Assembly: GCA_964503265.1 (NCBI GenBank)
Contig: CAZCYO010000005.1
Location: 39,151-103,150, forward strand
Source: an uncultured Gammaproteobacteria bacterium
Lineage (GTDB): Bacteria > Patescibacteriota > Microgenomatia > Levybacterales > UBA12049
DNA length: 64,000 bases
Direction: 5' to 3'
In this document: positions 29,401 through 47,928 of the stretch, one piece after another
Layout: each line of letters opens with the position of its first letter
Position numbering within the stretch: position 1 is the first letter of the stretch
Notes under the pieces: model-generated
The model's input: only the letters and a program-made list of their open reading frames with translations
Told to the model about the DNA's origin: nothing
The model's database searches: none
Translations under genes and position numbers: made by a program

Positions 29401-29505
29401 ATAATCTTTTACATCGTTTTCTGAGGGATGGTATTGTCTGAGGAATGCTTCCCATTGCGAGGCTCGCTGTTTCTTAAGCGGATCGATGCGAGTATTTGTA
29501 GCCAT
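26482..29505 (-). CDS. VirB1-like large bitopic cell-wall hydrolase (cytoplasmic N-domain, one TM, extracellular domain with a C-terminal SLT lytic-transglycosylase-like motif)
   Basis: 1007 aa; TM VPVLVVVIIIILLIIFIFMLLGMAG; C-terminal ISCESGYNPNAWADPIAVGTPDSGGAWGLFQM matches the SLT catalytic E-S...GLxQ signature. Comparable to PrgK/TcpG/TraG-type hydrolases of Gram-positive T4SS. Confidence 0.6.
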   Translation of the reverse strand: MATNTRIDPLKKQRASQWEAFLRQYHPSENDVKDYSSWVTWKQRLEPDVRASVSDKLLQFKNDFDELGGYDALAYMRTEEKEHTTSHPTGGHGGAHATSPIKPGDEKKAVDAAEDILRKNKALQPEDTPEQIREREKKAAAEKIIRRFFKENPVNYRRALERKYLPHDPRFTQIAQDRNLEQTTPRGELGDSHTTATSNSARERFFAYHTGALQEYYQKERKEIHQDKREDPMWEASYTSLQEAYAKLTTPTPSYYSDAVSQLGEAQVGAIGRAVYTRQFVEQFPEKAEVYAQQDSSIQQAIQEIEVERIEEEDQDVPELPPLIPPLSIPHYAPREEREEAEERDIARSHTRDERQDAGNQPGAQQTTNSQSSNNNTDGPFSRGKKKARDLAQKGAKKIGNAVGNALKKETKQAIKEGAKQLVQKGLAATSEYWVPVLVVVIIIILLIIFIFMLLGMAGQTAQENSELTETIPVIVSKTVNKAEIKNPSELTDEEKLLTYTISTSYAGKARSLETTEYVPDGTTFASASGTFIAYDNTNTIITDPVKQAGSIKKIVWTTNNVGASGLENAETPAVVVDTYTKPPYLLPSPTQSQESFSEDAISRLNTLGGFVAAHQSYLQAKVKNSDKKYVDPFVSVIWAGAIEGTGGNPYSWNCLDKPGTINEGCSGGFTSGGWQVGYGNQVAQAANHLAADFVEVYKTDSPEKVQEVGNNVIENSTAVKGGKIKNPATFPAETVTSLVTKATAGDIQAQQALAILLMDPEIGAVAIAQEVAKDISANDNWRGTMEGWGPYYVSNMQSFSNKMQTLATTYTAGSQSSARTFTPQIYTLVVKANQEIKDTYIINQATAQAVGVEATTSTQTTIPSTENEAANENNCNGTYAGAISKNPLNKNFGDPSCTLDEVKERDNLYALLKQKDAANADKWFFTIISCESGYNPNAWADPIAVGTPDSGGAWGLFQMGQGKNGEYDHGDVAWGNQVTNAINYNNSLQSINLSFHYWECAKSFWQ

Positions 29506-29540: not shown

Positions 29541-31940
29541 CTAAGATTGCTGGGGAGTCGTCGGTGGGAGTGGATTTGTCACAGGAATTGTTCCCGTTTG
29601 AGGCTGTGGTGTCGGAGTCATAGTCATAGTTGTTGTTGGTATTTGTGTTGGTTGCACGGTTGGCGTTTGTTGTGGCGCTGTAGGTGTCATAACAGGAGGA
29701 GCACTCGGTTCCTCAACGGTAACCATAATTGGTGCCGTTGGTGCCGTTGGTGCCGTTGGTGCTGCTGTCGGTAGTGGCATAACAGGGGTAACAACTGGAA
29801 CTGGTTGTGGCGTGACTTGCGATAACGGAGGAAGTGGCTGTGCTCCAGGAACAGGGCCGCTATTTAGTGAGGATTGTGTCGGCTGAAATTCTGTCGGTTG
29901 GGTCGGCATAGAGACAGGAGGAGGTGCCTGTTGTATGACTGGTGGTTGTTCGCTTAAAGTAGGTGTTGGCATAACAACTGGCGGTGGTGTTTGCTCAATC
30001 GGTACTGGTGGTGTCTCTGGAACTTGCTCAACAGGCTCAGGGAGTGGTTGTTCAAGTGGTGTATCAAGCGCTGTCTGATCGTCAAGTGTCTGTTGTGCAA
30101 GCTGTTGCTGTTTCATGACCTCCTCTGGATTTGAAGTAATAAGATCGTGCTCAAATGGTGCGCCAAGTACTTTCATCGCGACGTGATTTTGTCCGGCGAA
30201 AAATAATCCTTCTCCGATATCTGCAGTTAATAATAACTCTTTTTCACCTTCAGATAGATAGAAAATTTCTGTCGCCAAATCGACTTCGGCAGTACCTTGT
30301 TTAAGGAGAATCTGAATAGACGAGTTGGTAAGAACTGCTTTACCGTATTCTGTTTTCAAGAAGTCCTCTACGTCTTGTGTGGCGGTTGTTAATCCCAGAT
30401 AGTATTTTCGCGCACGCTTTGCGATTGAATAGACGAATGAGGCTGAATCTTCGTATTTCATCATATACCACGCTTCATCTAAGATCAGGAGTCTTTTTTT
30501 AAGTGATTTTTTAACTTTTGTCCACACGAAATCCAGAATAATATGCATCGCAATTGGACGCAGTTCATCTTCTAGGTTTTTAATATCAAAGATCGTCAGT
30601 GGATTTGTCAGATCAAAATTAGATTTCTGGTTAAAAATACCTGCAGCAGATCCTTTAATGAATTTCTCAAGTCGAAACGCCATCTCTCTTGCATTCGCAT
30701 CCTCATAGCCCATGAGTGTTTTGTATAAATCTTCCATAATTGGTGCTTCTTTGTTCTGGGTAGATGGATCAGGTGTAATGCCTTTTTGACCGTATGTTTC
30801 AATAAGTGCTTTATCTAAAAGCGCGTCATGTTCTGCATCGAGTGTTCCAAGCACGATCTTAAGGAGCCCGTGAAGAGAAAGAATCTTGAGGCCAAGCTCA
30901 TTTTCTCCTGCTTCAAACAGGTTTGCCAAATCAAACGGATTAATTTTAACGGGAGCATTATTTGAGAATTCGACGACTTCACCACCAAGTGTTTGAGTAA
31001 GTGTTCCGTATTCTCCCTCGGGATCTACGACGATTACTTCTGTTCCAAGCATGAATTGCCGCATAATCTCAAGTTTGATCAAATACGATTTCCCTGATCC
31101 TGATTTTCCTAGAACCATCTCGTTCGCATTTTCAAGTGAGAACCTGTCGAAGATAATGAGGGAACCGTTTTGCTGGTTCATCCCATACATGATGCCTTTG
31201 TTCTGTGTAAGCATAGCGCTCGTAAAAGGGAAAGTTGATGCAAGTGATGTCGTATCCATGTTACGAGTGATAAATAGTCGATCACTTGCTATTGGAAGTG
31301 TGGATTTAAATCCTTCTTCCATTTGAAGCGTTGCTGGTTTCGCTGAGAGGAGAAGAGACGCCAGGGTTGTTTGTAGCTGTTTTGATGCTGAGAGCAGATC
31401 TCCAAGCGAATCGCTTGTAATGGTTAGATAAAAAGAAAATTGGAAGAATCTCTCTATGCCTTTTGCTAGTTCTTCCTGAAGTCCAAGTGCATCTTCAAGT
31501 GCTGCTTCAATTTTCGGGTCAACTGGTTTTCCGTTCTCAGCATCTGACGCAATTGTCGCTTCCATTTCCCCGATTTTTCGTCGTAAGTCATTTAATACAT
31601 CATTTGAAGACGTTGGGTAAATAAACATGGAAATATCAATGGTGTGATCGTAATCGACGACTGGTTGTAGCCAACTTGGAGAGACATAACGTGGGTATCC
31701 GACGACAAAGAGGGTGGAGTAATACTTTTCCCCGACACGTACATATTTGAAATCAACTTCAACAGAAGATGGAGAGATAAGATCAACCATCGACACCGTT
31801 CCCTTTTCTAGATTTTGAAGTGCTTTAGATGTAGGTGATGGTGGTGGCGTTTTCCCTTTTGCTGCTGGTTGAGGTGCTTGTGCACCAGCTTGTGTCTGGA
31901 CGGGTGGTTGCGCCACCTTTTTATTTCCAAAAAGTCCCAT
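29541..31940 (-). CDS. VirB4/TraC/CagE-family T4SS ATPase (ATPase body, with a Pro/Thr/Gln-rich ~190-aa C-terminal tail)
   Basis: 799 aa; Walker A GKSGSGKS and Walker B LLILDEAW. The region after the Pro-rich N-terminus (VDFKYVRVGEKYYSTLFVVGYPRYVSPSWL) matches the VirB4 central domain. Confidence 0.85.
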   Translation of the reverse strand: MGLFGNKKVAQPPVQTQAGAQAPQPAAKGKTPPPSPTSKALQNLEKGTVSMVDLISPSSVEVDFKYVRVGEKYYSTLFVVGYPRYVSPSWLQPVVDYDHTIDISMFIYPTSSNDVLNDLRRKIGEMEATIASDAENGKPVDPKIEAALEDALGLQEELAKGIERFFQFSFYLTITSDSLGDLLSASKQLQTTLASLLLSAKPATLQMEEGFKSTLPIASDRLFITRNMDTTSLASTFPFTSAMLTQNKGIMYGMNQQNGSLIIFDRFSLENANEMVLGKSGSGKSYLIKLEIMRQFMLGTEVIVVDPEGEYGTLTQTLGGEVVEFSNNAPVKINPFDLANLFEAGENELGLKILSLHGLLKIVLGTLDAEHDALLDKALIETYGQKGITPDPSTQNKEAPIMEDLYKTLMGYEDANAREMAFRLEKFIKGSAAGIFNQKSNFDLTNPLTIFDIKNLEDELRPIAMHIILDFVWTKVKKSLKKRLLILDEAWYMMKYEDSASFVYSIAKRARKYYLGLTTATQDVEDFLKTEYGKAVLTNSSIQILLKQGTAEVDLATEIFYLSEGEKELLLTADIGEGLFFAGQNHVAMKVLGAPFEHDLITSNPEEVMKQQQLAQQTLDDQTALDTPLEQPLPEPVEQVPETPPVPIEQTPPPVVMPTPTLSEQPPVIQQAPPPVSMPTQPTEFQPTQSSLNSGPVPGAQPLPPLSQVTPQPVPVVTPVMPLPTAAPTAPTAPTAPIMVTVEEPSAPPVMTPTAPQQTPTVQPTQIPTTTMTMTPTPQPQTGTIPVTNPLPPTTPQQS

Positions 31941-32605
31941 TATGCTGCTCCTCCTTCTCGAACGAATGCACCATGAACACTTGTATCAACTTCACTCATA
32001 GAATAGGTGCTATCGTTATAGATTTCATAGAAGAGTTTGGCTAATTCATCTTTTTCAAGGAGTTTTGCCGAGGAAGAGAGTTTTCGAAGTTGGCCAAGTA
32101 ACGATTCGGCTTTCGCGAGAATTGCTTCTTGTGCTTTCGCTGCAAACGCGTCTGGGACATCTCCTTTTTTACTTACAGCTTGAGTTGCTCCAGCTGCTCC
32201 AAGTTCCATTGAAGAGAAAGGAACGACCATATAGAATTGTTTACTTAAGACCACATTTACTTTCGTCATTTCCTGAACAAAGTCTTTATAGAGTTCAATT
32301 TGCTTTGAAAGGAGTGCGTTTGTGGTTTTTTGTGCTTGTTCTTCAAGCTGTTTGGTGTAGATCGAGATATCCATTCGTTTGTTACGAACCAGAATCTGCA
32401 CAGGGAATGTTAATGAATTAAGAAGAGACGCATAGGAGTAGATACGAGCATCCTGTTCAGCTCGTGAGAGAAGTGAGAAGTTACTTGCGGTAATTTCGAT
32501 GATGCCACAGGCATTCCCACTTTCAAGCAGGACTGTGTTTCCGATGATATCCTTTATTTCGGTAAATTTTTGGGTAGATGAATGTACTTGGGCAGATTTA
32601 CTCAT
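31940..32605 (-). CDS. VirB4 N-terminal domain encoded as a separate ORF (split VirB4)
   Basis: 221 aa; EIKDIIGNTVLLESGNACGIIEITASNFSLLSRAEQDARIYSYASLLNSLTFPVQILV matches the conserved extreme N-terminus of Gram-positive VirB4 homologs. Its TAA overlaps the ATG of the ATPase ORF (TAATG). Confidence 0.6.
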   Translation of the reverse strand: MSKSAQVHSSTQKFTEIKDIIGNTVLLESGNACGIIEITASNFSLLSRAEQDARIYSYASLLNSLTFPVQILVRNKRMDISIYTKQLEEQAQKTTNALLSKQIELYKDFVQEMTKVNVVLSKQFYMVVPFSSMELGAAGATQAVSKKGDVPDAFAAKAQEAILAKAESLLGQLRKLSSSAKLLEKDELAKLFYEIYNDSTYSMSEVDTSVHGAFVREGGAA

Positions 32606-32607
32606 AG

Positions 32608-33864
32608 TTAGCTAAACAGTGCTTTTCTTAATTCTTCTCGTTCGTCATGGGACGTAATATCAAGCGGGTGAAGGATGTCTCCATTCACTATTACTTCAAT
32701 TGTATCAAAGCGCGCGATACTTTTGGGATCCTCAAGCGTTAATGTATAAACTCCGTTAGGGAGTGCTGTTGCTGATGCAAATTGTCCGAGTTCATTTGTT
32801 TTAAATGCCCGAACCGGAGTGCCTTCTTTATCGGTTAATTCAACTAAAATATTTGAGAGAATATTCCCTCGTGGATCGTGGACCACTCCAAGAAGGACGT
32901 TTGGTGTGTCTGAAGGGGTTAATATCCCTCGACTTTTTGCTTCGGCCGGTGTCATAAGTTTTTTTACATGAGGCTCGTAAGCTAAGTCTACAGGCGTTTC
33001 ATTTGGAGCAGGTGGTTTTAATTCCTCGACTGTATACGTGCTCGTCAGTTGTGGGGCAGCTGCCGATGTTTCTGCTTGGTGCATTTTTTGTAGTTCTTGC
33101 TCGAGCTGCTCTTTTTGTTTGAGAAGCGCTTGCAGTTGATGTTCAAGTGACATTGTATGATCATGCGCAGCTTGAGTCTGTGCAGCCTGTGCATGCATTT
33201 CTTCATCTTTTGCCTTATTAAGTTCTGCCTGCATCTTCGTCACTGTATCGATAATTTCTTTGTCTTTTTCTTCAAGTGATGTTGGTGCAGTGGATTGTGT
33301 TGTTATTTGGGGAATGATAATTCCGCCATCAATTGCCACAGGAGGAGTGGTTGGGTGCTGAAGCGGTAGAGGCGCTGGGGCTTGAGGATTAAATAAATGC
33401 TGCAGGAAGGCTGATTCACGAGTATCCATGTCAGATTGCTTTTGGGTTGCTGTACTGGCGAGAAATGTCGTAAATGCTTTTTTCTTTTCTTCTTCTTGTG
33501 CCTTTTTTTCCGGTTGATGAGTCGCGTTTTGATTTACGTGAGTTGAAATGGAGAAGTCTGTAAACGCATAGTGATTACCCATCTTTTGATACACATATTG
33601 GTTCGGTGAAATAAGTGCTTTAAGGAGTTGTGTAACCATAACATCAAGTGGGCGTCCGTCAATTGGTAAGAATGCAAGGGCTGCACCACTTCCGGCAAAT
33701 AGCGGGATGAAGATAAGTTTTAGTAAGAGAAAGACAGGAGCATAGTAAAGAATAATTGCACTTACACAGCCGGTCGCGAGATAGGCAAATTGCTTCACTG
33801 TCATGTTTCCGATGAGTTTAAATTGAAATCCGGTGACGTCTTGTGGGATAGGATGGTTTTCCAT
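32608..33864 (-). CDS. VirB3-like (PrgI/TcpE-family) membrane protein fused to a coiled coil and a C-terminal carboxypeptidase-regulatory-like beta-sandwich domain
   Basis: 418 aa; N-terminus FQFKLIGNMTVKQFAYLATGCVSAIILYYAPVFLLL with two TM segments (VirB3/PrgI-like); central Q/E-rich coiled coil; C-terminus LLGVVHDPRGNILSNILVELTDKEGTPVRAFKTNELGQFA (CarboxypepD_reg-like). Confidence 0.5.
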   Translation of the reverse strand: MENHPIPQDVTGFQFKLIGNMTVKQFAYLATGCVSAIILYYAPVFLLLKLIFIPLFAGSGAALAFLPIDGRPLDVMVTQLLKALISPNQYVYQKMGNHYAFTDFSISTHVNQNATHQPEKKAQEEEKKKAFTTFLASTATQKQSDMDTRESAFLQHLFNPQAPAPLPLQHPTTPPVAIDGGIIIPQITTQSTAPTSLEEKDKEIIDTVTKMQAELNKAKDEEMHAQAAQTQAAHDHTMSLEHQLQALLKQKEQLEQELQKMHQAETSAAAPQLTSTYTVEELKPPAPNETPVDLAYEPHVKKLMTPAEAKSRGILTPSDTPNVLLGVVHDPRGNILSNILVELTDKEGTPVRAFKTNELGQFASATALPNGVYTLTLEDPKSIARFDTIEVIVNGDILHPLDITSHDEREELRKALFS

Positions 33865-34027: not shown

Positions 34028-37000
34028 CTAGGCTGCTTTGGCATGCGTGTCATCGTGCGCGGAATCAGGTTTTCGTCCACGTCCTCTTATTCGATTCATG
34101 AAGCTTCTAACTTTCCCAGGTTCTTTTGCATGACTATCTTCATGATGATTATCATCGTGCTTTGCATGGTCAGCTTCTTCTTCTGGTGCTTTCTTTTTCT
34201 CGTCTATAGCATATTGTGTTTCTGCTTCTAGTTTTGCAAATACGTCTTCTGCTTTTGAAAGAATTGCACTTTGTGCTTTATCCTCCGGCGATGTTTTATC
34301 TTTGAGTGCAGCAATTCGCGCATGAATATTCTCTTTAGCTGCTTTATGTGCCGCAAGTTTATCATCTTCTGTCATACCCGTTGTATATCGTTGGTTCAGT
34401 CCCGCGCGGAGATCAGCTGGGAACGCAGCGTCTTCAATAAAGGGCTTTGCTTTATCAGGAATATCTCCAGGCTTTTTTTCTTCAGTTTTTGTTTCGGCTG
34501 GTTTTGTGCCTGAACCCGTTGGAGCAGCTGCAGGCGTGTCTGTTTGTGTTTTATGTTCATCAGATTTTCCTGTATGAGGTGTTTTGTGTTCTTCTTTCTT
34601 CTTTTCTGGGACGACTCCTGTGGCTTCAAGTTCGCGTCGTGGATCAAAAGGAAGTGGGATCGCAGGCCACGGCTCAGTCACGGTCGGCGGCGTAATGAGC
34701 ATATCTTTTGGAAGAGTGAGCGTCATGGTTGCATTAATACTCGTGTCTGGTGGAGCTAGTGCGATCACATCGCCTGTTAATGGAAGGCCATAATTACCAG
34801 GTCCTGGAACTGGGTTAAATCCTTGACCAGTAAACCCAGCTTCACCGAGATTGTGTAGAAAATCAGGATTCTTCGCTTTGAGTTCACTAACTTTTCTAAT
34901 ATCAAATCTAAAGTTCACTAAATCACCGCGTGCTCCGCCTGGGCGAGGGAAGTTCGTTGGATTCGTTTCAGTATCCATATAATATTCACCTTCAAGTACT
35001 GGTTGTCCGTTAAGACTCATGTCTTGAATTGTAATATGCTTGTTCGCATCATATGTGATCTTAATTCGTCCTTCATCTGTGGTTATATCGCCACCAGTTG
35101 GATTTGCTTTAATGAGAGCTGTGATTCTGTCGTGGAGAGGCACTTTGTTTTCAATGACGACATTTCCGACTGAGAGACCCGCTTTATCGAGTGCTGCATG
35201 GAGTCCTTGCATCTCTTGTGGTTGGCCGGTGAATTTGACTGATCCATCGGGTTGAATTTCCCCCATGACATGCTTTGTACTTGGTAGCCAGAATTTACCT
35301 CCTGGAAGTACTTTTATGCGATCGACACTTTGAGTGACTGGATTTGGCATGTCGAAGAATGCTGCCTGACTTCCTCCGTTTACAGCAGCAAGTGCTTGTT
35401 TCATTTGTACTACTTGCATTGAATCGACACTAGTATGTGGAAGTCCGCTTAGCATAGCTTTTACTTCCGTTGGGAGATCAGGTGCTTTGGCGATATCTCC
35501 ATGTACCACGATTGATCCATCCTGTTTTACAAACATAGGGAGGTTGAGTGCTTTTCCCTTCTGGTCAAGAACGGGAACTCCTTGTTTATCAAGCAGCCAG
35601 AGGTGTCGTTCTGTGCCTGAAAAAGCAGTTTCTGGATGGACACGAAATCCGTTGGGGAGTGATACGTCATGTCCAGTTTTAAATGCATCTTTAAATGCAT
35701 CAATACTTGGCGGAACACTGAACTTATTCTCAATCCATGCGCCAGCGCCTGTTCCTCTAAGGCCTCTGGTCTGTTCCATAGCGCCTTTGCCCATTCGGTC
35801 AAAGAGGGTAGGACCGACGTACTGTGGTTGGCCAGTTCTCAGCTCTGTTATGGTTGCACGGGCACTTGAGGCGATCTTTTGTCCGATAACTCCACCCACC
35901 ATACCTGTGCCAAAGCTGATCGCACCAGCAGTAAGGGAGCGACGGAATCGGTAGTTTCTCATTCGTCGATCAGCAGCTCGCTGTCCTGGAGTGAGTTCTT
36001 GTGCCCATTTGGAGAGTTCTGTTACTAGATCTTGTTGCATTTCTTGATATTTTGCTTGAGTTGAAATATCGAAATGTAACAGTTCTGCTAAATCTTTCTC
36101 GTCCTTGGTGAGATTCGCGCTTTCATCACCATAGGCGGTGGCACTCTCAAAGGTAATAAGGTTCTTACGATTGTCGACTGACATTTCTTCTCTTTTTATA
36201 ATTTCAGCAATTCTACTTCTCGCTTCATTAACTGCTCGAGTCATGCGATTTGCATCTCCACTGGTCATGTCTGCTTTAATTTCAGCCACACTTCGTCTCG
36301 TGCGTCCGGTTATGATATCGACAGTTGTTCCTCCTCCTTCATGGAGTACTTTTGCTGAAATTGCTTTTCTGAGTTCAAATATTTGTTCAAGTTCGTGACG
36401 ATTTCGTGCGTCTGGTCCGGTGGATCGTCTGTTATACGCGACGTCTTTATTCACTGTCCAGTAATCACGATTTGCTTCCTGCCATTTTCTCGCTCCCGCT
36501 GCGACTCCTGCTGCAGCTGAGGCAACGCCAAGTGGCGTAAATGGAGAGAGAGGGGCCGCAATTCTTCCGATCAATCTAACCGGTCCTGCCCATCCTCGTC
36601 CGGCGATTGCGACAATTGCTCCGACAGTCATCGGGTGGAGTAGGGTATTTCCAATTACCGCAAGAATCGGTCCGCCTTCACGCAGTACCCGAGCTCTCGC
36701 ATTTACTCTATAAAGAAGACTTTCTTCCCAGCCTCGACCATTTTCATAAGCAGCAGCACGTTCATTCCCTAAGATAAAGACAACTTTTTTATTAACCCTA
36801 TCAAGAGCTGCGAGACGATCTGCTTCGGGGATGAGTTTACCATCTTTATCGACAATAGTTTTTAGATACCTTTCTCGTGCGACTTTCGCCATCTGCGTTA
36901 TGTCTGAAGCAAATTCTTGGGCGCGATCTCCATAGCGATTGGGTGCGTTGAGGATTGCTTGCGCATCAGGGTCGCGTGGATTGGCACGAATGATATCTCG

Positions 37001-39496
37001 AAGTTCTGTGCGTATTTGTTCAGGTGTCCACGTCCTGTCATCGACCACCATCGATCGAAGCATTCGATCCCAAATTCGTGTATGAAGCTCACTTCCATTT
37101 CGTACTTCCCTAATTGTTTCTCCACGTCGTCGCGCTTGTTCGGACGTCATGTTCTTTATACGATCGACAGTTCCAGCTGCCGAGGCATTTAATTCTGCAC
37201 GAACAGCAGCAGCAGTCGCTTCCATATTTGCACGACCAAGCATTTGGCGCTGTCTTCCGTCTAAGATGTTCATGACACCTTCACGCTGTCTAAAGCTCGT
37301 TGGAACTTCAGCAATTCTTCTCATCCAGTTGGTAAAGCGTGACCATCCACGACGGCGAAGCCCTTCGTTAACACTTTCTTTCGTTCGAATATCACCTAAC
37401 TGTGCCGCAGCTTCTGTCCTGTTCGCGATACCGATTTCAATATCCTCAGGTTCGACTGGGCCAGGGGGACCTTCTATAGTGGGCTTCGAATCATTAGTAG
37501 TAGGCTCTTTTCCTACGGGTGCAGTTGGTGGGGAAGCAACTTTGTTTTCTTGTTGATTACTTTCAGTACCAGTTATAACTGGAGCTGCTGGTGGGTCTCC
37601 ATCAAGCGTATCTGGTTTTTTTGTAGGGTTGTTATCTCCAGAGGTGCCATCCGTATCTTTCCCAGTACCTGATGCATTTCCGTTTGGCCCTTGGACGAAG
37701 TCTTTTCGTTTTATTCGTATTGACGATGCTTTTTTCTCTGGAGTAGCTGTTTTATTTCGTCTGATGAGTAATTCTGCTCCTTTTCGCCCGAAGTCGAGGA
37801 GTAAGTCATTATCATTTTCGTTAAACAGTGTTTTCATTCGTGCAATTGCTGTTTGCTTCGGTGTTCTTTCCTCAGCAAGCTTTTTTCCGTCAACTGTCAT
37901 TGGTGTAAGTGTGAGGTCTCGAGTTAATTTATTCCCTTCATTATCTTTTCCGACCCCTTCATATTGTGCGATCAGCTCGCTAATCTTCATATTCTTGGCT
38001 TCATTGAGCTTTACTCGCATTTGCTCAAGTACGGTGTCAGCTTTTGGCGTTGGTTCATTAAGAGAGGTCATGGCATCAAAAACTCGCTGATAGAACTGAC
38101 CTCTGAGTTCACTTAATTTCTTTGCAGCCTCTGTGTAGGCAGGAGTGCCACGTTTAGATTTGTCTTGAAGAATGACCTCATGTGCGCGCATTTGCTCACG
38201 ATATGTTTTATCTTTATCCTTTGTAAGCTGCTCGTCTTTTACATCAAGAAGTCGATCAGAGAGAAGGGCCATGGCGTAGAGATCTTTTTGTGGATTTGCA
38301 TTGGCAGCTTCAGGTCCACCGACCCGAGTGCCATCAGGTTTCTGCTTAAAATACGATTCCATATTCCCAGCAACTGTTTCATTCGGGGTTTTATGCCCCA
38401 CGACTGTATACACTTCTTGGCGGCGATATGGGTCAAGGAGTGTATTATTACTTGCTTCCACGGCTATTGCGTGTTGTGCTTCAAGTGCCATAAGGATTTG
38501 AAATCCTTCGCCTTTTCGGGCGACAGCATTCAGCGCTTTCGTGAGCGAATCGTCTTTTCCGGCATAATCTCCTCGAAAACGAATACGGTCTTCAATTTGT
38601 TTATATAATGCATCAGTATTTTTCTCAGCAGGGAGGGCAATTCTTGCTGCTTTGAAAAGTTCACCTGCTGTATCCCATGCGTCTTTTGATTGTTTCTGTA
38701 CCTCTTCAATGCTTAGTCCCGTATCTCCCGGTTCGTCAGTGAAGTAGGGGAATGCGTGTGTAGTCTCCTCTCCTTCTTTTATTTCTGTTAACGCTTTAGC
38801 TAATGTTGGTAGATCTCCACTTTTTCTAGCTGCTTCTAACCTCGGATCGTTTGTAAATTTTCCACTTGCATCTCTTTCTGGAGCAGGTTTATCTGATGAT
38901 CGAGGAACTTTAGGGAGTTCGAGAACACGAAGTGTTTGTATCTCATTTTGCGCAAGTTTAATGTCTGCTTCAACGGGTGTGTCATTTCCCGATATAATTC
39001 GTGCACGTTCTTTAATTTTTATTTCCCCTTCTTCATGGGAGAATAAATTATCATATGTTCTTCCTCCTGCCTCTAATGTGTCCTTAATCTTTTTGAGCTT
39101 GTTTTTCTCGTCATCCGTAGAAGCTAATACTAGCTCATCATCTAGAAATTTAAGTACTCCATTAACAGGAAGTCCCTCTCTGACTGTATGTGTTTTTCCA
39201 TCACTAATAACAGGCCTGTCATAACTATCTCTTAAGTCGATGACCTGCTTTCCTGGTTTGCCATCTATTACGATGTCTGCTAATGGTTTTCGTTCAGATA
39301 GTTTTTTGAGTGCACTAGAAAAAGTATCATATGCCGCAAAGGTAGCCGCATCTTTCGGATCTAGTGTTTTGGGGTCTTTGCCACGAAAAGGTTCGGCTTT
39401 TTTTGCCCAAAGCCGTTGTGCTTCATGTACGACATTAACGACAACTTTACGTTCTTGACCAGCGTCTTTCTCAGCTGTTACTCCTGTTTCGGCCAT
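34028..39496 (-). CDS. giant hypothetical protein (1822 aa) with central hydrophobic segments and a His/Lys/Asp-rich C-terminus; candidate T4SS structural protein or substrate
   Basis: Single uninterrupted ORF; no NTP-binding motif; putative TM segments around residues 940-990 (ILAVIGNTLLHPMTVGAIVAIAG; RLIGRIAAPLSPFTPLGVASAAAGVAAGA); low-complexity P/T/K linker regions. Confidence 0.5.
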   Translation of the reverse strand: MAETGVTAEKDAGQERKVVVNVVHEAQRLWAKKAEPFRGKDPKTLDPKDAATFAAYDTFSSALKKLSERKPLADIVIDGKPGKQVIDLRDSYDRPVISDGKTHTVREGLPVNGVLKFLDDELVLASTDDEKNKLKKIKDTLEAGGRTYDNLFSHEEGEIKIKERARIISGNDTPVEADIKLAQNEIQTLRVLELPKVPRSSDKPAPERDASGKFTNDPRLEAARKSGDLPTLAKALTEIKEGEETTHAFPYFTDEPGDTGLSIEEVQKQSKDAWDTAGELFKAARIALPAEKNTDALYKQIEDRIRFRGDYAGKDDSLTKALNAVARKGEGFQILMALEAQHAIAVEASNNTLLDPYRRQEVYTVVGHKTPNETVAGNMESYFKQKPDGTRVGGPEAANANPQKDLYAMALLSDRLLDVKDEQLTKDKDKTYREQMRAHEVILQDKSKRGTPAYTEAAKKLSELRGQFYQRVFDAMTSLNEPTPKADTVLEQMRVKLNEAKNMKISELIAQYEGVGKDNEGNKLTRDLTLTPMTVDGKKLAEERTPKQTAIARMKTLFNENDNDLLLDFGRKGAELLIRRNKTATPEKKASSIRIKRKDFVQGPNGNASGTGKDTDGTSGDNNPTKKPDTLDGDPPAAPVITGTESNQQENKVASPPTAPVGKEPTTNDSKPTIEGPPGPVEPEDIEIGIANRTEAAAQLGDIRTKESVNEGLRRRGWSRFTNWMRRIAEVPTSFRQREGVMNILDGRQRQMLGRANMEATAAAVRAELNASAAGTVDRIKNMTSEQARRRGETIREVRNGSELHTRIWDRMLRSMVVDDRTWTPEQIRTELRDIIRANPRDPDAQAILNAPNRYGDRAQEFASDITQMAKVARERYLKTIVDKDGKLIPEADRLAALDRVNKKVVFILGNERAAAYENGRGWEESLLYRVNARARVLREGGPILAVIGNTLLHPMTVGAIVAIAGRGWAGPVRLIGRIAAPLSPFTPLGVASAAAGVAAGARKWQEANRDYWTVNKDVAYNRRSTGPDARNRHELEQIFELRKAISAKVLHEGGGTTVDIITGRTRRSVAEIKADMTSGDANRMTRAVNEARSRIAEIIKREEMSVDNRKNLITFESATAYGDESANLTKDEKDLAELLHFDISTQAKYQEMQQDLVTELSKWAQELTPGQRAADRRMRNYRFRRSLTAGAISFGTGMVGGVIGQKIASSARATITELRTGQPQYVGPTLFDRMGKGAMEQTRGLRGTGAGAWIENKFSVPPSIDAFKDAFKTGHDVSLPNGFRVHPETAFSGTERHLWLLDKQGVPVLDQKGKALNLPMFVKQDGSIVVHGDIAKAPDLPTEVKAMLSGLPHTSVDSMQVVQMKQALAAVNGGSQAAFFDMPNPVTQSVDRIKVLPGGKFWLPSTKHVMGEIQPDGSVKFTGQPQEMQGLHAALDKAGLSVGNVVIENKVPLHDRITALIKANPTGGDITTDEGRIKITYDANKHITIQDMSLNGQPVLEGEYYMDTETNPTNFPRPGGARGDLVNFRFDIRKVSELKAKNPDFLHNLGEAGFTGQGFNPVPGPGNYGLPLTGDVIALAPPDTSINATMTLTLPKDMLITPPTVTEPWPAIPLPFDPRRELEATGVVPEKKKEEHKTPHTGKSDEHKTQTDTPAAAPTGSGTKPAETKTEEKKPGDIPDKAKPFIEDAAFPADLRAGLNQRYTTGMTEDDKLAAHKAAKENIHARIAALKDKTSPEDKAQSAILSKAEDVFAKLEAETQYAIDEKKKAPEEEADHAKHDDNHHEDSHAKEPGKVRSFMNRIRGRGRKPDSAHDDTHAKAA

Positions 39497-39511: not shown

Positions 39512-40096
39512 TCAATTACTCATAGAACCTGATCCATTGTGTTCGTCCTCTGATGGCGTGAAAGGAACAGGTGCTGGAGGAGGTGGTGGGACATCCTCTG
39601 GCATGGACATGTTCATATCCTGTGTTGACATAGCTGCTGGTTCACTCATGACAGGTGAAGCTGGTTGTACTTCTTCAATCGGTGCTGTGACTGGTTGTAT
39701 GGTATCTGCAGGAGCTGATACTTCTTGCTGTTGTTCATCAGCTATCATCTCGCGTCCTGCGCCTACATAAAGATCGTGAAATTCTAAGAATGCATCTTTA
39801 AAAAGATCCTGGGCCTGAGGAACCTTTTCCATGATAAATGCTTCAACCTCTTCACGAGATTTTCCCTGTTCATTCATTTGAGTGAATGCATCTAAATCTG
39901 CTTCTGGAATAGCATCAATAATCTTTGCTGTTAAGAAGTAATCTAGTCGAGCATAGAGCTGGACCAACATTTCTTCTTTTTGGGTATCGTCAACTGCTTC
40001 CATGTGTACTTCTTCGAGTAATGATTCTAAAAATGCACGCGTTTCTGGTGGAATTTGATCCTGTTCGTTTGATTGTGGATTGTTTTGATCGTTCAT
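39512..40096 (-). CDS. acidic hypothetical protein with a Pro-rich C-terminus
   Basis: 194 aa; D/E-rich (EQDQIPPETRAFLESLLEEVHMEAVDD); a PPPPAP tract; directly upstream of the giant gene. Confidence 0.4.
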   Translation of the reverse strand: MNDQNNPQSNEQDQIPPETRAFLESLLEEVHMEAVDDTQKEEMLVQLYARLDYFLTAKIIDAIPEADLDAFTQMNEQGKSREEVEAFIMEKVPQAQDLFKDAFLEFHDLYVGAGREMIADEQQQEVSAPADTIQPVTAPIEEVQPASPVMSEPAAMSTQDMNMSMPEDVPPPPPAPVPFTPSEDEHNGSGSMSN

Positions 40097-40308: not shown

Positions 40309-42063
40309 TTATGCTTTTTCTATTCGGTTGTACGTAAATGGAATAGTTGTCATCAGTTTGCGCTCTATCTTTCCGTCTTTATCTTTGGTGCTTTCAAAGA
40401 AGGACATTCTTAGAGAACCATCTTCCATTTTTGTGGCAATTCCCCAGTAAAACCTCTGACCTACCACATAATCATCTAAGATTTTTTTCTCTGCCTGCAA
40501 ATCAGTCTCTGATGGTGTGTCTATGTTTTTCCCATGAAGGCCTAATTGATGAATATGTACCTGTATAAGATGATTTCTTCCGTCTCCAGGCGATGGTTCC
40601 TTTCCATATGCTTCTTTTAACCCAGTTTTTTCTTCAAGTTCTGTAAAGCGCTTTGTGTGCTTTGGCATATCGGGTATAGTACTATCATTAATTGCTTTAC
40701 TATAGTCATTATCTGGAATAGCTACTGCTCCTAGCATGGCATAATTCTCTCCCTGTTTTGTCGCAGTCCCACGTATCGAAAATCCTAGCTCTTTATTAAC
40801 TTCATTTGCTCGCGCGGCAATTTGATCAATCATTTGAAGGAGTGCCGGGGTGAGTATGAGAGCGGATGCTTTTTTTGTGAGCTCTTTACTCCGTACGTCA
40901 GCTAGTTGTGTTTTCAAGTATGCTAATTCTTTTTGGAAATCTTCTTTTAGCGATATTCCTTCAGTTCTGAAGTCTCCAGTAGTTAGATCTAATAATTGAT
41001 CCACGACCTCTTTATAGGTTAATCTTTTACCTTCAGGCGTTTTTATTTGTGAAGGAAGGTTGGCATATTGATCAATGTCTTTTTGGGATACCGGAATAAC
41101 GCTATTTTTCTCTTCTGTTTTTTCCGGTGGAGCAGGGGTATTTTCTGTCACAGGAGAGATATCAAAAAGGAGCTTGAGTAGTGGTTTTTCCTTGTCGTTT
41201 GGGTTATTGACTCTTGTTGTAGTATCCCCGGATTTCTTTTCGTTAGCTTTTCTAATGAGTTCATCTTTTAGCTCTTTATTATTACTACTAATGAGATCTG
41301 CTTCTATAAGAGAGGGGATAAGTTTGCTCGTGTTGGCCCCAAAAACATTAGAAAACCAGGAAATAATCTCCATATCTTTTTGTAATGCGGCATAATCTAC
41401 TTTCTCATTTTCATCGACATATTCAGTCGCGACATATAAATAAAATTTTTTAATATCAGAGCTCTTATTAGGTCCAACAAAATATGTATCATAGAAATGT
41501 AGTAGTTTATCTGTCGTGATCTCTCCCTCAATCCCCATTTTTTTATAAACGTTCTTTACTTCTTCACGTTTATTTTCGGCTGTCACTTCAAGTTTCTTTA
41601 TAAGCGATGCTTTTACTTGTTCAGCCCACGCTGCTTTTTGTTTGTCAAATTCCTTTTCTGGCTGTTTTTTCCAATAATCAGTACGCTCTGTATCAGAAAG
41701 TTTTTTTACTTTATTTACCGTATCATCTGATAGGGTGAGTTGTTCATTTTTAATTTCTCCAATATCAGTTTTCTGTGGGTTAAGTGCATCACTACCCAGA
41801 AGTAATCGGGTTGTTAAGGCGACACGTTCTGATGAAACGCGTTCTATTTCCTTTGGTTTAACTGTCTCTGCTTGGGATGGGGAAGCTCCTTCGTGTTCTG
41901 ACATAGATTTAGTGTAATCAGTATAAAAAATCTTTGCAAATTTTGCTTTATAGGAACTTAACAAAATGATTGTCATATTGCTCAATTGTTTTGTTGCTGG
42001 AACAATCGTTAGCAATGAAGCAATGAAGCAATGAAGCAATGAAGCAATGAAGCAATGAAGCAA
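40309..42063 (-). CDS. hypothetical protein (584 aa as called). The N-terminus encoded by the 8-bp repeat is probably 5' leader, with the true start likely downstream (MTIIL... or MSEHEG...)
   Basis: Long ORF with a K/E-rich soluble body; the first 16 codons (HCFIASLL x2) are an artefact of translating the GCAATGAA repeats. Confidence 0.45.
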   Translation of the reverse strand: MLHCFIASLLHCFIASLLTIVPATKQLSNMTIILLSSYKAKFAKIFYTDYTKSMSEHEGASPSQAETVKPKEIERVSSERVALTTRLLLGSDALNPQKTDIGEIKNEQLTLSDDTVNKVKKLSDTERTDYWKKQPEKEFDKQKAAWAEQVKASLIKKLEVTAENKREEVKNVYKKMGIEGEITTDKLLHFYDTYFVGPNKSSDIKKFYLYVATEYVDENEKVDYAALQKDMEIISWFSNVFGANTSKLIPSLIEADLISSNNKELKDELIRKANEKKSGDTTTRVNNPNDKEKPLLKLLFDISPVTENTPAPPEKTEEKNSVIPVSQKDIDQYANLPSQIKTPEGKRLTYKEVVDQLLDLTTGDFRTEGISLKEDFQKELAYLKTQLADVRSKELTKKASALILTPALLQMIDQIAARANEVNKELGFSIRGTATKQGENYAMLGAVAIPDNDYSKAINDSTIPDMPKHTKRFTELEEKTGLKEAYGKEPSPGDGRNHLIQVHIHQLGLHGKNIDTPSETDLQAEKKILDDYVVGQRFYWGIATKMEDGSLRMSFFESTKDKDGKIERKLMTTIPFTYNRIEKA

Positions 42064-42083: not shown

Positions 42084-42773
42084 TTGTATACTATTTCTAT
42101 GCTCTTTGTGGGATTATTCTTTCTTTTTCTTATTCTCTTATTTATCTCATCATATTTACTTACTCAATCTCTTTCAACTCTTTTTTATCGGATCACGAGA
42201 AGTGAGAGATGGACTATTACTATTCTGGCCCTTCTTTTTTTTCCAGGTGTGCTCATTCACGAGTTGGCACACTTCTTAATGGCAACGATATTATTTGTTC
42301 CGACAGGGGAGATAGAGTTTATCCCACAGATTATGGAAGACAGGGTGAAATTAGGGAGTGTTCAGATCGGGCAGACAGATCCATTCAGACGGGCGATTAT
42401 CGGGATTGCACCAGTTATCGTTGGGGCGAGTGTATTAATTGGGGTATTATATTACTTTACAACTTCGACCTTCGCATTTACTACACCACTAGATATTCTT
42501 AAAGTACTAGGGATACTCTATATAGTGTTTGAAATTAGTAATACGATGTTTTCGAGTAAGCGTGATGTTGAAGGTACGCTTGAACTACTTGTAGCCATAG
42601 TGGTTATCGGAGGGGTACTCTACTTTGCTGGAGTACGACTCCCTGAATCGTTTATCGAAGTGATTACTTCAGACAAAGTATTATCATTCTTTGAACAAAC
42701 AAGTAAACTTCTCATTCTCCCGCTGCTTCTTAACTATTCCTTGTGGGCAGTAAGTAAACTCCTCGGAAAATAA
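42084..42773 (+). CDS. polytopic membrane protein with an HExxH motif (putative membrane zinc metalloprotease)
   Basis: 229 aa; about 5 TM segments; LIHELAHFLMA motif at the end of TM2. Confidence 0.4.
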   Translation: MYTISMLFVGLFFLFLILLFISSYLLTQSLSTLFYRITRSERWTITILALLFFPGVLIHELAHFLMATILFVPTGEIEFIPQIMEDRVKLGSVQIGQTDPFRRAIIGIAPVIVGASVLIGVLYYFTTSTFAFTTPLDILKVLGILYIVFEISNTMFSSKRDVEGTLELLVAIVVIGGVLYFAGVRLPESFIEVITSDKVLSFFEQTSKLLILPLLLNYSLWAVSKLLGK

Positions 42774-42777
42774 CTCT

Positions 42778-43143
42778 TTACGTACATGTGTCAAATCCAA
42801 AGTTCTTAATGCATGAGGCACCTGTTATATATGCGATTGTATTGACGATACCTATCGCTAAGAGAATCAATACAAGTCCGATCAGTGCATAGGTGATGAT
42901 TTGTTTTGCTGCACCTGCTTGTTTCGGATCTCCACCAGACATAATATATTTAATACCACCCAAAATGATAAACACGAGTGCGGTAAATCCAGCAAAGAAG
43001 AGGGAATAGTTAAGGAGTTGCTTAAAGAGCGCCGGGATACATGCTAGTGTTGCGATATCAGCAGTCCCATCTGGTGCAGTCCCTTTAAGACAGCCTGCCT
43101 TTGCCCAGAAAGATTCAGCGAGAATGAATAAGTGAATGAACAT
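42778..43143 (-). CDS. VirB2/TrbC-like T4SS pilin paralog 1
   Basis: 121 aa; signal sequence + TM-loop-TM core GFTALVFIILGGIKYIMSGGDPKQAGAAKQIITYALIGLVLILLAIGIVN, shared with the four downstream paralogs. Confidence 0.6.
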   Translation of the reverse strand: MFIHLFILAESFWAKAGCLKGTAPDGTADIATLACIPALFKQLLNYSLFFAGFTALVFIILGGIKYIMSGGDPKQAGAAKQIITYALIGLVLILLAIGIVNTIAYITGASCIKNFGFDTCT

Positions 43144-43212: not shown

Positions 43213-43644
43213 TTAGTTAACGAGTTTCGGAAGAGAAAGATTACTAACACTAAGACCAAATAATCCGAGAACGATATTAAGAATGAAGTAGGCAAGGAAG
43301 GTAATAATAAGACCAACAAGAGCAGCAACGATAGTCCCACGTGCTTCTCCAACTTTGGCTTTATCACCACCTGAAAGAATCCATTTAATACCACCAAAGA
43401 TTAGAAAGAAGAGAGAAATAACAGCAGCAATTACAAGAACTCCAATAATTATATTTCGAAGAACATCGCCAGTTGAACTGCCTTGAAGCTTACATAGTTG
43501 ATCTTGGATTTGTCCTGCTGATCCACCCGTAACACCTGACTTAGCACAAGGATTAAGATCTACTTCGCCAGCTGCCATTGCAGTAGATACGACTGAGGCC
43601 ATAAAAAGTGAAGATGTAGAGATTGTTGTGAGCAGTTTTTTCAT
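43213..43644 (-). CDS. VirB2/TrbC-like T4SS pilin paralog 2
   Basis: 143 aa; signal peptide (MKKLLTTISTSSLFMASVVSTAMA); core LFFLIFGGIKWILSGGDKAKVGEARGTIVAALVGLIITFLAYFILNIVLGLFGL. Confidence 0.65.
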   Translation of the reverse strand: MKKLLTTISTSSLFMASVVSTAMAAGEVDLNPCAKSGVTGGSAGQIQDQLCKLQGSSTGDVLRNIIIGVLVIAAVISLFFLIFGGIKWILSGGDKAKVGEARGTIVAALVGLIITFLAYFILNIVLGLFGLSVSNLSLPKLVN

Positions 43645-43784: not shown

Positions 43785-44198
43785 TTAGTTATTCACCAAT
43801 CGAGGAATTTTAAAGATAGTGTTTGAATCGAGTCCGAAAATTCCAAGAACAATATTTAAAATAAAGAAGGAGAGAAAGGTGATGATTAGTCCGACGACTG
43901 CTGCAGTTAACGTCGCACGTGCTTCGCCAACTTTTGCCTTGTCCCCGCCAGAGAGAATCCATCTAATACCACCATAAATAAGAAAGAATAACGAAGCGAT
44001 CGCTGCTAAAACGAGTAAGATTGAAACGATATTAAAAATAAGTGAATTACCGCTACTTTCTGGATTTATATCGCAGAGAGATTTAAACCCACCATCAGGA
44101 CACAGTGTTACCGATGATGCAGCGATAGTGTATGTAGCAGACAGAATAACAGTACCGATAGAGGAGAGTGCGCTAATAGGAAGAAAATATCGTTTCAT
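43785..44198 (-). CDS. VirB2/TrbC-like T4SS pilin paralog 3
   Basis: 137 aa; core LFFLIYGGIRWILSGGDKAKVGEARATLTAAVVGLIITFLSFFILNIVLGIFGL, about 80% identical to paralog 2 in the core. Confidence 0.65.
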   Translation of the reverse strand: MKRYFLPISALSSIGTVILSATYTIAASSVTLCPDGGFKSLCDINPESSGNSLIFNIVSILLVLAAIASLFFLIYGGIRWILSGGDKAKVGEARATLTAAVVGLIITFLSFFILNIVLGIFGLDSNTIFKIPRLVNN

Positions 44199-44237: not shown

Positions 44238-44567
44238 TTAGGTGTTTGGTAGATCAAGAGACAAGAGATTTATATTAAACATGTATCCAACGATATTAAC
44301 TATCCCAAAGGAGAGAAAGACGATGAGTACCCCAACTACTGCAAAGATGATTCTATTTCGCGCAGCTTGGATTTTCGCTTTATCGCCACCAGAGGTTATC
44401 CATAAAATCCCACCCCAAATAATAAAAAAAAGCGTAATCACTACGCCAATGACTATAAAGAGTGTTATCGCATTTTGAATAAGTTTCTGGTTCTCAGCTA
44501 TACCACCTGTTGGAATACCTGATGGGACTGGGACTGATTGTCCATTAATAGTGAATCCTGCTGCCAT
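44238..44567 (-). CDS. VirB2/TrbC-like T4SS pilin paralog 4
   Basis: 109 aa; core LFFIIWGGILWITSGGDKAKIQAARNRIIFAVVGVLIVFLSFGIVNIVG. Confidence 0.6.
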   Translation of the reverse strand: MAAGFTINGQSVPVPSGIPTGGIAENQKLIQNAITLFIVIGVVITLFFIIWGGILWITSGGDKAKIQAARNRIIFAVVGVLIVFLSFGIVNIVGYMFNINLLSLDLPNT

Positions 44568-47433: not shown

Positions 47434-47811
47434 ATGCAAAATCACAGTTCAAAATTCAAAAGTGATTTAAAAGTGAGATGCTATCACTTTAGTTTAGAGC
47501 TTATTACTGTTATTGACTCCTTACCTAAAGAGCGAAGTTGCTGGATCATTGGAGACCAGGTATTAAGAAGTGGGACAAGTATTGGCGCGAATCTTACAGA
47601 AGCAACAGCCTCAAGCTCCAAACTAGAATTTAAGAAATTTCATGAGATAGCTTTGAAAAGTGCAAACGAAACAAAATACTGGCTTAATTTACTCTTAGAT
47701 AGCGGTAAAGGAGAAAAATACCGTCTTGAACAGCTTTTACAAGAAGTTACGGAGTTATCAAATATGATAGCGGCAGGAATTATGAAAATGAAAGGTAAAA
47801 CGACCTTTTAA
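47434..47811 (+). CDS. four-helix-bundle protein (TIGR02436 family), second copy
   Basis: 125 aa; GDQVLRSGTSIGANLTEA...ALKSANETKYWLNLL signature; flanked by imperfect inverted repeats (47413-47430 / 47812-47833). Confidence 0.75.
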   Translation: MQNHSSKFKSDLKVRCYHFSLELITVIDSLPKERSCWIIGDQVLRSGTSIGANLTEATASSSKLEFKKFHEIALKSANETKYWLNLLLDSGKGEKYRLEQLLQEVTELSNMIAAGIMKMKGKTTF

Positions 47812-47928
47812 CTTTTGATTTGTGTTTTTGACTTGATACTTTTCATTTTTTACTTCTCCCTCACACTTATCATTGTTTTATAAGTATTTTATCAAGAAGA
47901 ATGTTAGCTATGAAGATATACTCTCCTC

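Follow-up and report, generated by a model that had tools for sequence, protein, structure and literature searches.

We describe a giant gene in a 64,000-nucleotide stretch of contig CAZCYO010000005.1 (positions 39,151 to 103,150 of the forward strand; hereafter, the window), where a single open reading frame (ORF) encoding 1,822 amino acids (aa) lies on the minus strand within a monoderm-type type IV secretion system (T4SS) operon. On sequence grounds, this giant is a member of a previously undescribed Microgenomatia family of giant modular proteins, in which a conserved carrier and a conserved junction are followed by a variable C-terminal domain. Our favored reading, to which we assign a probability of roughly 0.35, is that the family represents chaperoned, T4SS-associated exported carriers or effectors and not core channel subunits, with the window giant being an insertion-bearing member that lacks the glycosyltransferase (GT) domain of most relatives.

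The T4SS of Patescibacteria is widespread, lies beside the replication origin, and has no known substrate; in the only species tested, epibiotic growth requires it (PMC10633639, PMC12102498). Without a nearby relaxase or type IV coupling protein, it is a suspected protein exporter (PMC10633639, PMC12102498). The giant family offers a concrete, testable candidate for what this machine handles or for how it contacts the host, and even under more ordinary readings it brings with it a multidomain family, a conserved linear motif, and a three-gene module that are all new. The Patescibacteria T4SS itself is known, and the giant family appears, by analogy, akin to modular proteins associated with secretion whose C-terminal domains are interchangeable. 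Neither the family nor its junction motif nor the module that the giant forms with a DUF5663 gene and an HExxH membrane protein gene is described in the literature that we searched, and none of the Patescibacteria T4SS papers within it contains them; a dedicated study (PMC12102498) makes no mention of a giant protein, DUF5663, or glycosyltransferases, and the term DUF5663 is absent from the main text of the papers searched.

An intact gene in an undescribed family

The giant gene (34028..39496, minus strand) is a single ATG-initiated ORF of 1,822 codons plus a stop codon, and no ORF longer than 155 aa overlaps it in another frame. The protein has no internal repeat, no paralogue within the window, and no cysteine, and it gives no Pfam or NCBIfam match at E ≤ 0.01. 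Hydrophobic segments, scored on the Kyte-Doolittle scale in 19-residue windows (KD19), are confined to aa 942-968, 979-1002, and 1188-1205, and since none occurs before aa 942, we conclude that an N-terminal signal peptide is absent. Residues 601-700 are rich in P, G, and T (15, 12, and 12 per 100, respectively), and the last ~120 residues (aa 1701-1822) are enriched in H, K, D, and E. The first-pass annotation, which had reported an 1,822-aa protein with P/T/K-rich low-complexity linkers, two or three hydrophobic helices near the middle, and a His/Lys/Asp-rich C-terminal tail, was accurate in these respects, with the helices now counted as three. Its statement that there is no enzymatic motif holds for the window giant but not for most of its relatives, in which GT9-like or GT2-like domains follow the junction motif. 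It had also judged an RGD tripeptide not meaningful by itself, and we agree: RGD occurs twice (aa 308 and 1523), apparently by chance, is not conserved, and was rejected as a functional motif.

The family was revealed by an exhaustive phmmer search of aa 690-1641 against 1.84 billion cluster representatives, which returned 30 proteins at E ≤ 1e-3, nearly all of them 1,400 to 2,170 aa long. A profile of close members, run against species-representative genomes and JGI metagenomes, brought in 22 further loci, and the family now stands at 48 members, non-redundant at 90% identity. In a word-indexed protein search, the full-length giant matched only itself, the index apparently being swamped by low-complexity words; a central-module profile matched nothing there, and the close-member profile gave three matches. 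The giant alone, used as a query against metagenome contigs, recovered no locus. Where family sources are named, they are Candidatus Daviesbacteria, Candidatus Levyibacteriota, and "Patescibacteria group," that is, Microgenomates, which are ultrasmall and probably host-dependent bacteria.

Family members share an anatomy of N-domain, P-rich linker, helical module, tandem small α/β modules, junction motif, and variable C terminus, from which the window giant departs in two ways, with a 440-aa insertion and with only a 198-aa low-complexity tail after the motif. In the closest full locus, L002, compared by tblastn of the window proteins, the giant is 27% identical over 999 aa, against 78% for PrgI, 64% for a regulator, 59% for the HExxH membrane protein, 51% for DUF5663, and 45 to 59% for the pilins, indicating that the giant is the fastest-evolving gene of the locus.

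The insertion and the low-complexity tail have no homologues and the family is scarce in databases, as might be expected if the ORF were an annotation or assembly artifact made of fused or frameshifted genes, or a decaying pseudogene. We regard this as extremely improbable, and the data rule out an artifact: the frame is uninterrupted, the sequence is recorded identically in NCBI and Logan, with the same gene recovered on a Logan contig assembled from SRR12487046, and neither GC content nor GC content at third codon positions (GC3) breaks abruptly along the gene. Moreover, homologues of 1,400 to 2,170 aa from independent assemblies share the order of the four conserved modules (N-domain, central module, post-helix region, and junction motif). 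Because of this collinearity, which extends to 47 other non-redundant members, the concatenation of frameshifted genes considered in the first-pass annotation is essentially refuted, as is a pseudogene.

Conserved architecture from N-domain to junction motif

The modules of the giant, all encoded on the minus strand, begin with the N-domain (aa 1-240, 38777..39496), which has no signal peptide, is predicted to be cytoplasmic, and carries the conserved blocks E-G-[IL]-P-V..L..FL, R..QEA, and ELVLP. In the family this domain spans ~200 aa and is found by jackhmmer in 25/25 homologues that include the N terminus; a sequence-profile search of the PDB gave no relative. It is followed in the window giant by the lineage-specific insertion (aa 241-680, 37457..38776), which is charged and helical, ends in a P/T/G-rich linker, and has no jackhmmer match in 29 homologues (alignment occupancy, 0.03 to 0.3).

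The family signature is the central helical module of ~550 aa (aa 681-1225, 35822..37456), in which two adjacent hydrophobic helices and a third ~190 aa farther on occupy equal relative positions in every member. An AlphaFold2 model from a 9-sequence alignment is all-helical (mean predicted local distance difference test [pLDDT] score of 61; predicted template modeling [pTM] score of 0.61), with the soluble bundles confident and the hydrophobic helices at low confidence. We found no match to this module in the PDB, either by Foldseek (best E of 0.4, TM of ~0.1) or by sequence profile, and a Pfam scan of the central modules of all family members at E ≤ 1 gave scattered chance matches only.

The three helices are Gly/Ala-rich (e.g., AAGAAVFGGIAGLAGGLIS) and marginally hydrophobic. 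Helix 1 (aa 942-968, 36593..36673) reaches a KD19 maximum of 1.71 and putatively forms a hairpin with helix 2 (aa 979-1002, 36491..36562; 1.21), and helix 3 (aa 1188-1205, 35882..35935; 1.27) is Gly-rich (SLTAGAISFGTGMVGGVIG). Across 29 members, mean KD19 maxima for helices 1, 2, and 3 are 1.40, 1.51, and 1.41 (range, 0.9 to 1.9). Membrane proteins encoded in the same window peak at 2.9 (VirB6-like), 3.94 (the anchor of a 1,007-aa protein), 2.6 to 3.25 (pilin), and 2.25 (PrgI), with some of their secondary peaks reaching only 1.0 to 1.9. Under the hydrophobicity criterion of PMC6110835, scored here on the Kyte-Doolittle scale rather than with a deltaG predictor, the giant-family helices fall in the moderate class of T4SS-translocated effectors with transmembrane domains (TMDs). 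The charges flanking the helices suggest that the N terminus is inside, that helices 1 and 2 form a hairpin, that ~180 aa then lie in the cytoplasm, and that helix 3 leads to a C terminus outside; charge density falls after helix 3, consistent with this arrangement.

The post-helix-3 region (aa 1226-1613, 34658..35821) has low charge and consists of tandem small α/β modules, the number of which varies among relatives, with one module matching three times in tandem in P0030 and P0031. AlphaFold2 modeling of aa 1207-1640 (36-row alignment; pLDDT of 75.5) yields repeated β-α-β5-α units and an unstructured motif, and a Foldseek search of the PDB with this model returned nothing significant (best E of 8e-3 at a TM of 0.12). 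The motif itself, PLPFDPRRELE in the giant (aa 1614-1624, 34625..34657; family consensus [IP]P.PF.PR.PLE), is present in 28/28 members long enough to reach it, with a pLDDT of about 55 to 64.

Interchangeable C termini behind one junction

What follows the junction motif differs widely among members. We classed the C termini of full-length members with local hidden Markov models (HMMs) built from the post-motif regions and observe that ~35/45 carry a GT9-like or a GT2-like domain. The GT9-like class is backed by Pfam PF01075 (up to 1e-9) and TIGR02193 (up to 6e-7) and the GT2-like class by PF00535 and PF13641 (about 4e-5), the NCBIfam matches and most of the GT2 matches falling below the curated family cutoffs. 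An FkbM methyltransferase is added to the GT2-like domain in P0033 (3.8e-14), three members bear a 170-aa helical C-terminal domain (the helC170 class), and several, including the window giant, have no recognizable domain after the motif. At least four unrelated C-terminal classes thus follow the junction, behind which GT-A-type and GT-B-type enzymes are swapped, and the family shows the combination of conserved carrier, conserved junction, and variable C-terminal domain by which polymorphic systems are recognized. A PDB sequence-profile search with the GT2-like class gave nothing usable, and a metallophosphatase domain suspected at the end of P0006 from motifs seen by eye was not confirmed by Pfam and was discarded.

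In the window giant, the position of these enzymes is taken by a low-complexity tail rich in K, E, P, T, and H (aa 1625-1822 plus the stop codon, 34028..34624, minus strand), in which Pfam, NCBIfam, and our local HMMs detect no glycosyltransferase catalytic domain. P0007, the one close relative of the window giant, conserves the composition of this tail and not its sequence. The tail ends in a basic stretch, VRSFMNRIRGRGRK, with the pattern R-x4-R-x-R-x-R-x-R, and the last 20 residues are net positive in 25/27 family members, C-terminal charge being a weak and non-specific signal.

A dozen members end in a conserved ~130-aa domain without a Pfam match (YLKT..LP.G…F.A.L..D..G.L.V..H…NLN..I..QIN.QI.P.W…F.FKKK), which could serve as a signal for secretion or anchoring. 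In P0009, P0010, P0012, P0023, P0029 (two copies), P0032, L005, L007, L013, and L014, it comes after the glycosyltransferase domain, and it is absent from the window giant.

A conserved trio inside and outside T4SS operons

The T4SS-like setting proposed in the first-pass annotation is borne out. Downstream of the giant and on its strand lie a PrgI/VirB3-like gene (32608-33864), a TraC-like/TrsD-like gene encoding a homologue of the VirB4 N terminus (31940-32605; weak NCBIfam matches and a precomputed PF26593 TraC-like assignment), and a VirB4 gene of the CD1110 family (29541-31940; E of 8e-113). Upstream, also on the minus strand, is an array of five T4SS pilin genes, two of which (44612-45997 and 43213-43644) match PF18895 (T4SS_pilin) in our scan, while the other three (42778-43143, 43785-44198, and 44238-44567) were assigned because they cross-match pilin arrays at related loci. 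Between DUF5663, the giant, and PrgI, we detected no terminator-like hairpin on the minus strand, and a promoter scan did not rise above the shuffled expectation. With its MPF-FATA ancestry, TrsD and PrgI, pilin arrays, and dnaA adjacency, the locus matches the published Patescibacteria T4SS (PMC12102498).

Two small genes accompany the giant. The DUF5663 gene (39512..40096, minus strand; 194 aa; Pfam, 7.8e-7) ends 15 bp upstream of it and encodes an acidic helical domain (aa 1-112) with a P/A-rich tail. Tblastn of the window proteins places DUF5663 immediately upstream of the giant in 25/25 related loci. We consider its product a putative chaperone or adaptor; a PDB sequence-profile search gave nothing usable. 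In Southlakia, a DUF5663 protein is Foldseek-similar to the C-terminal domain of trigger factor and to LTXXQ chaperone folds (Wang et al. 2023; PMC10633639 supplement). The DUF5663 genes of Southlakia epibionticum, one of them essential, lie apart from the slot upstream of PrgI, which is occupied by a different, essential 999-aa protein (PMC10633639 supplement).

The third gene is divergently transcribed (42084..42773, plus strand) and encodes a polytopic membrane protein of 229 aa with an invariant HExxH motif (HELAH) and a downstream GE..F. It adjoins DUF5663 in 19/25 fetched loci (17/23 distinct loci; tblastn), several of the others being cut by a contig end. A phmmer search recovered 18 ORFs, and the blocks HEL.H, GE..F, TD..RR..IG.AP, and MFSS.KD.EG are invariant across 19 aligned sequences; no Pfam or NCBIfam family matches. 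These motifs suggest that the protein may be a membrane metalloprotease, which would make it a candidate processor of the junction motif or of the pilins.

With respect to genomic setting, we observe the trio in a T4SS operon at 13 distinct loci, the window among them, where pilins lie upstream and/or PrgI-TrsD-VirB4 follows 0.1 to 8.5 kb downstream. At seven distinct loci (L005, L007, L012, L013, L014, L025, and L026), it lies instead in a conserved housekeeping neighborhood. Genes for ATP synthase subunits, an ABC ATPase, and a class I tRNA synthetase of the Trp/Tyr type precede it there, and those for RecG, RNase III, and ribosomal protein S16 come after it, with RecG following the giant. 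Four related loci were too short or too unfamiliar to be classed. The link between trio and VirB4 is therefore frequent and in-operon, yet not locally obligatory, and the conserved housekeeping neighborhood indicates that, in the course of Microgenomatia evolution, the trio has changed place between T4SS operon and chromosome backbone. The first-pass annotation had named an unrelated adhesin family found outside T4SS contexts as an outcome that would speak against its view. The family does occur outside such contexts, at these seven loci, but an adhesin it does not appear to be: an LPXTG adhesin of the PrgB type was rejected, as the giant has no signal peptide, no LPXTG in its translation, and no adhesin domain in Pfam.

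Two of the related loci, L006 (CAYZEE010000025.1) and L010 (CAYIRD010000011.1), are titled "uncultured Gammaproteobacteria bacterium" and yet carry a Patescibacteria-type pilin array, DUF5663, and a giant, with L010 also having PrgI, TrsD, and VirB4; both bins are probably mislabeled or contaminated.

A proposed chaperoned carrier or effector and its alternatives

The first-pass annotation had offered two roles for the giant, an envelope-spanning scaffold analogous to VirB10 or PrgK and a translocated substrate. The scaffold finds no support, with no TrbI, SLT, or CHAP domain in the protein, and we favor the substrate as plausible on circumstantial evidence, in the form of the exported carrier or effector introduced above. 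The giant would be made in the cytoplasm without a signal peptide and kept export-competent by the acidic DUF5663 protein, which would shield the N-domain and/or the three marginally hydrophobic helices. It would then pass to the T4SS powered by VirB4 or reach the cell surface by another way. The helix hairpin and helix 3 would enter a membrane, be it that of the producer, as an intermediate, that of the host, or both, and the low-charge α/β modules and everything past the P-F-x-P-R-x-P-L-E junction would end up exposed or delivered. For most relatives, the module handed over would be a nucleotide-sugar glycosyltransferase, sometimes with a methyltransferase, in a carrier-cargo logic that resembles polymorphic effectors and AB-type glycosylating toxins. 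Since the cargo position of the window giant holds only a fast-evolving basic tail, the conserved carrier would have to do something by itself, for example, insert into a membrane or make contact. Our data establish the existence and architecture of the family, its gene neighborhoods, the hydrophobicity of the helices, and the swapping of C-terminal domains, whereas export, chaperoning by DUF5663, membrane topology, and an effect on hosts are inferred.

Several observations argue for this reading. The giant sits between a pilin array and PrgI-TrsD-VirB4 on one strand, with the same placement at 12 other distinct loci; a small, acidic DUF5663 protein with a chaperone-fold likeness in its Southlakia homologue is encoded upstream throughout (25/25); the weakly hydrophobic helices are conserved in position; non-homologous C termini are swapped behind the junction motif; the sequence diverges rapidly (27% identity to L002); and the C termini are basic in 25/27 members. 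This is in line with work on other secretion systems. In effectors of the type III secretion system (T3SS) and the T4SS, transmembrane segments typically fall a little short of the threshold for inner-membrane targeting, and they are bound by T3SS chaperones (Krampen et al., PMC6110835), and Legionella TMD effectors take a two-step route via an inner-membrane intermediate (Malmsheimer et al., PMC11602083). Like TMD-containing effectors with small chaperones (SseF/SscB, the Legionella TMD effectors with IcmSW, and, by operon logic, VirE2/VirE1), the giant has few and moderately hydrophobic helices (PMC6110835), a small acidic partner gene upstream, no Sec signal, a gene linked to the machine, and a basic C terminus. 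It differs from them in having no sequence or fold similarity, in belonging to a monoderm Patescibacteria T4SS that lacks a coupling protein next to it, and in its size of ~200 kDa.

A second likeness is to polymorphic systems (CdiA with its VENN junction, Rhs, and LXG with Lap chaperones) and to the large clostridial glucosylating toxins, with which the family shares a carrier, a short junction motif, interchangeable C-terminal enzymes, a hydrophobic helical region reminiscent of delivery, repeat modules, and, in many members, glycosyltransferases as cargo. In contrast to these systems, the giant has neither homology to them nor an immunity gene, and the cargo is GT9-like or GT2-like and not a nuclease, a deaminase, or GT44; relative to TcdA/TcdB, the domain order of the giant family is reversed, and the window giant has no cargo. 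The C termini of relatives also match GT9 (Pfam, 1e-9; TIGR02193, 6e-7), as in lipopolysaccharide heptosyltransferases and bacterial autotransporter heptosyltransferases, and, weakly, GT2 (4e-5), as in exopolysaccharide glycosyltransferases, but in the family these domains sit behind ~1,200 aa of unrelated sequence, and they are absent from the window giant.

A number of points weigh against an exported carrier or effector. No homology ties the giant to a T4SS substrate, a signal domain, or a chaperone already known, and Foldseek searches with the AlphaFold models gave no informative fold match. The trio lies among housekeeping genes, without any T4SS gene within 6 to 9 kb, at seven distinct loci. 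Glycosyltransferase and S-adenosylmethionine (SAM)-dependent methyltransferase domains need cytoplasmic cofactors, which suits the producer's cytoplasm as well as the host's, and the positive-inside topology would place these domains outside. The giant is single-copy and in-operon, as expected of structural subunits, the window giant itself carries no cargo domain, and the C-terminal charge pattern is non-specific. Nor is there an immunity-like gene between the giant and PrgI in L019, L023, and L024, where PrgI follows within 0.1 to 0.6 kb, and a bactericidal polymorphic toxin with immunity was rejected for the lack of such a gene.

The single copy and the operon position directly upstream of PrgI, conserved at 13 distinct loci including the window, lead to the possible, if doubtful, reading that the giant belongs to the Patescibacteria T4SS as a subunit with a structural or assembly role. 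Anchored in the producer membrane by its three helices, it would dock its cytoplasmic N-terminal mass on VirB4, TrsD, and PrgI, and its α/β modules would cross the wall to form a stalk, a pilus base, or a contact head, taking over the function of missing VirB8, VirB10, or PrgB-type components. Recognizable VirB8 homologues are nearly absent from Patescibacteria (PMC12102498), the N-in/C-out topology with a Pro-rich segment is superficially VirB10-like, and the Southlakia gene upstream of PrgI encodes a large essential protein. Like the MPF-FATA accessory proteins (the VirB6-like PrgH/TraL, VirB8-like PrgL/TraM, and VirB1-like PrgK/TraG) and VirB10, the giant adjoins PrgI-TrsD-VirB4 in an operon of MPF-FATA ancestry (PMC12102498) and, by prediction, associates with the membrane and has a large part outside the cytoplasm. 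However, it lacks their defining domains. Pfam, NCBIfam, PDB sequence profiles, and Foldseek on two AlphaFold models reveal no similarity to VirB6, VirB8/NTF2, VirB10, PrgK, or TraM; there is no PF03743 match, no VirB10-like Foldseek match of aa 1207-1640 in the PDB, and none of the SLT/lysozyme-like or CHAP/amidase domains of PrgK, TraG, and CwlT. Three helices with KD19 values of 1.2 to 1.7 compare with at least five strong ones expected of VirB6, TrbL, or PrgH; there is no TrbL match, and separate TrbL-like (52209-53939) and Amidase_2 genes are present in the window, the former filling the VirB6-like slot. VirB6, VirB10, and PrgK identities were accordingly rejected, and a VirB8 identity appears improbable, no defining domain being detectable with these tools. 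Helices far less hydrophobic than those of the true T4SS membrane subunits in the window, the detachment of the trio from T4SS genes at seven loci, and the combination of swapped C-terminal enzymes with 27% identity, against 50 to 78% for neighbors, would likewise be unusual for a core subunit.

If the glycosyltransferases are instead taken as the heart of the family, it could be a membrane-tethered scaffold that works in the cytoplasm of the producer and has an envelope glycan or glycoprotein as its target, perhaps pilins or a surface layer, with the HExxH and DUF5663 proteins as partners, the T4SS-operon placement reflecting co-regulated surface structures, and the window giant having lost its enzyme. 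We consider this unlikely. The ~35/45 full-length members with a GT9-like or GT2-like domain, one with FkbM in addition, do carry typical polysaccharide-biosynthesis enzymes that need nucleoside diphosphate sugars or SAM, and the stable, syntenic housekeeping location at seven loci and the lack of a signal peptide fit as well. But the region after helix 3 would have to be cytoplasmic, contrary to the positive-inside pattern and to its low-charge, β-rich composition; 1,200 aa of conserved non-enzymatic sequence and the junction motif are left unexplained; GT-less members (the window giant, P0007, P0020, and the helC170 class) keep the rest intact; and there is no reason for repeated insertion between pilins and PrgI. 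The exported carrier or effector can also be drawn in a stronger form, which we regard as quite unlikely, in which the trio is the first identifiable cargo system of the Patescibacteria T4SS: the chaperoned, self-inserting carrier would traverse the pilus-bearing T4SS, its Gly/Ala-rich helices would enter the host membrane, the junction would be processed, and the glycosyltransferase or methyltransferase would be delivered into the host, with GT-less variants acting only as membrane-inserting or contact modules.

Other genes of the locus

Two T4SS subunits have features unusual for their kind: VirB4 bears a P/T/Q-rich C-terminal extension of ~200 aa, and the PrgI/VirB3-like protein, at 418 aa, contains a CarboxypepD_reg-like β-sandwich at aa 324-380. 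The sole VirB6/TrbL-like gene of the window (52209-53939, minus strand; E of 2.8e-5, just under the Pfam cutoff) lies ~12 kb from the main operon. VirB4 is followed by genes for an unannotated 1,007-aa protein (26482-29505, minus strand), a 177-aa protein, and an Amidase_2 protein (24512-25927, minus strand) in the hydrolase slot, and then by dnaN and dnaA on the other strand. The 1,007-aa protein is single-pass, has no Pfam domain, and contains one extremely hydrophobic helix (KD19 of 3.94) starting at approximately aa 437; together, the three proteins probably fill a wall-remodeling role of the VirB1/PrgK type. The dnaA and dnaN genes (21092-23868, plus strand) lie immediately beside the T4SS locus, an arrangement that has been reported in many Patescibacteria.

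Between the HExxH gene and DUF5663 lies a 584-aa ORF (40309-42063, minus strand) with a TTG start, a later Met being the likely true start; it is lineage-only, with no tblastn match in 25 related loci and no Pfam match. A second giant ORF, of 1,427 aa (47929-52212, plus strand), has no Pfam match and a homologue of 35 to 38% identity in L002. It is preceded by a 125-aa 23S_rRNA_IVP gene (the pair spanning 47434-52212, plus strand) that encodes a four-helix-bundle, bAvd-like protein, and 23S_rRNA_IVP genes recur in related T4SS loci, namely, L002 (twice), L003, L004, and L027.

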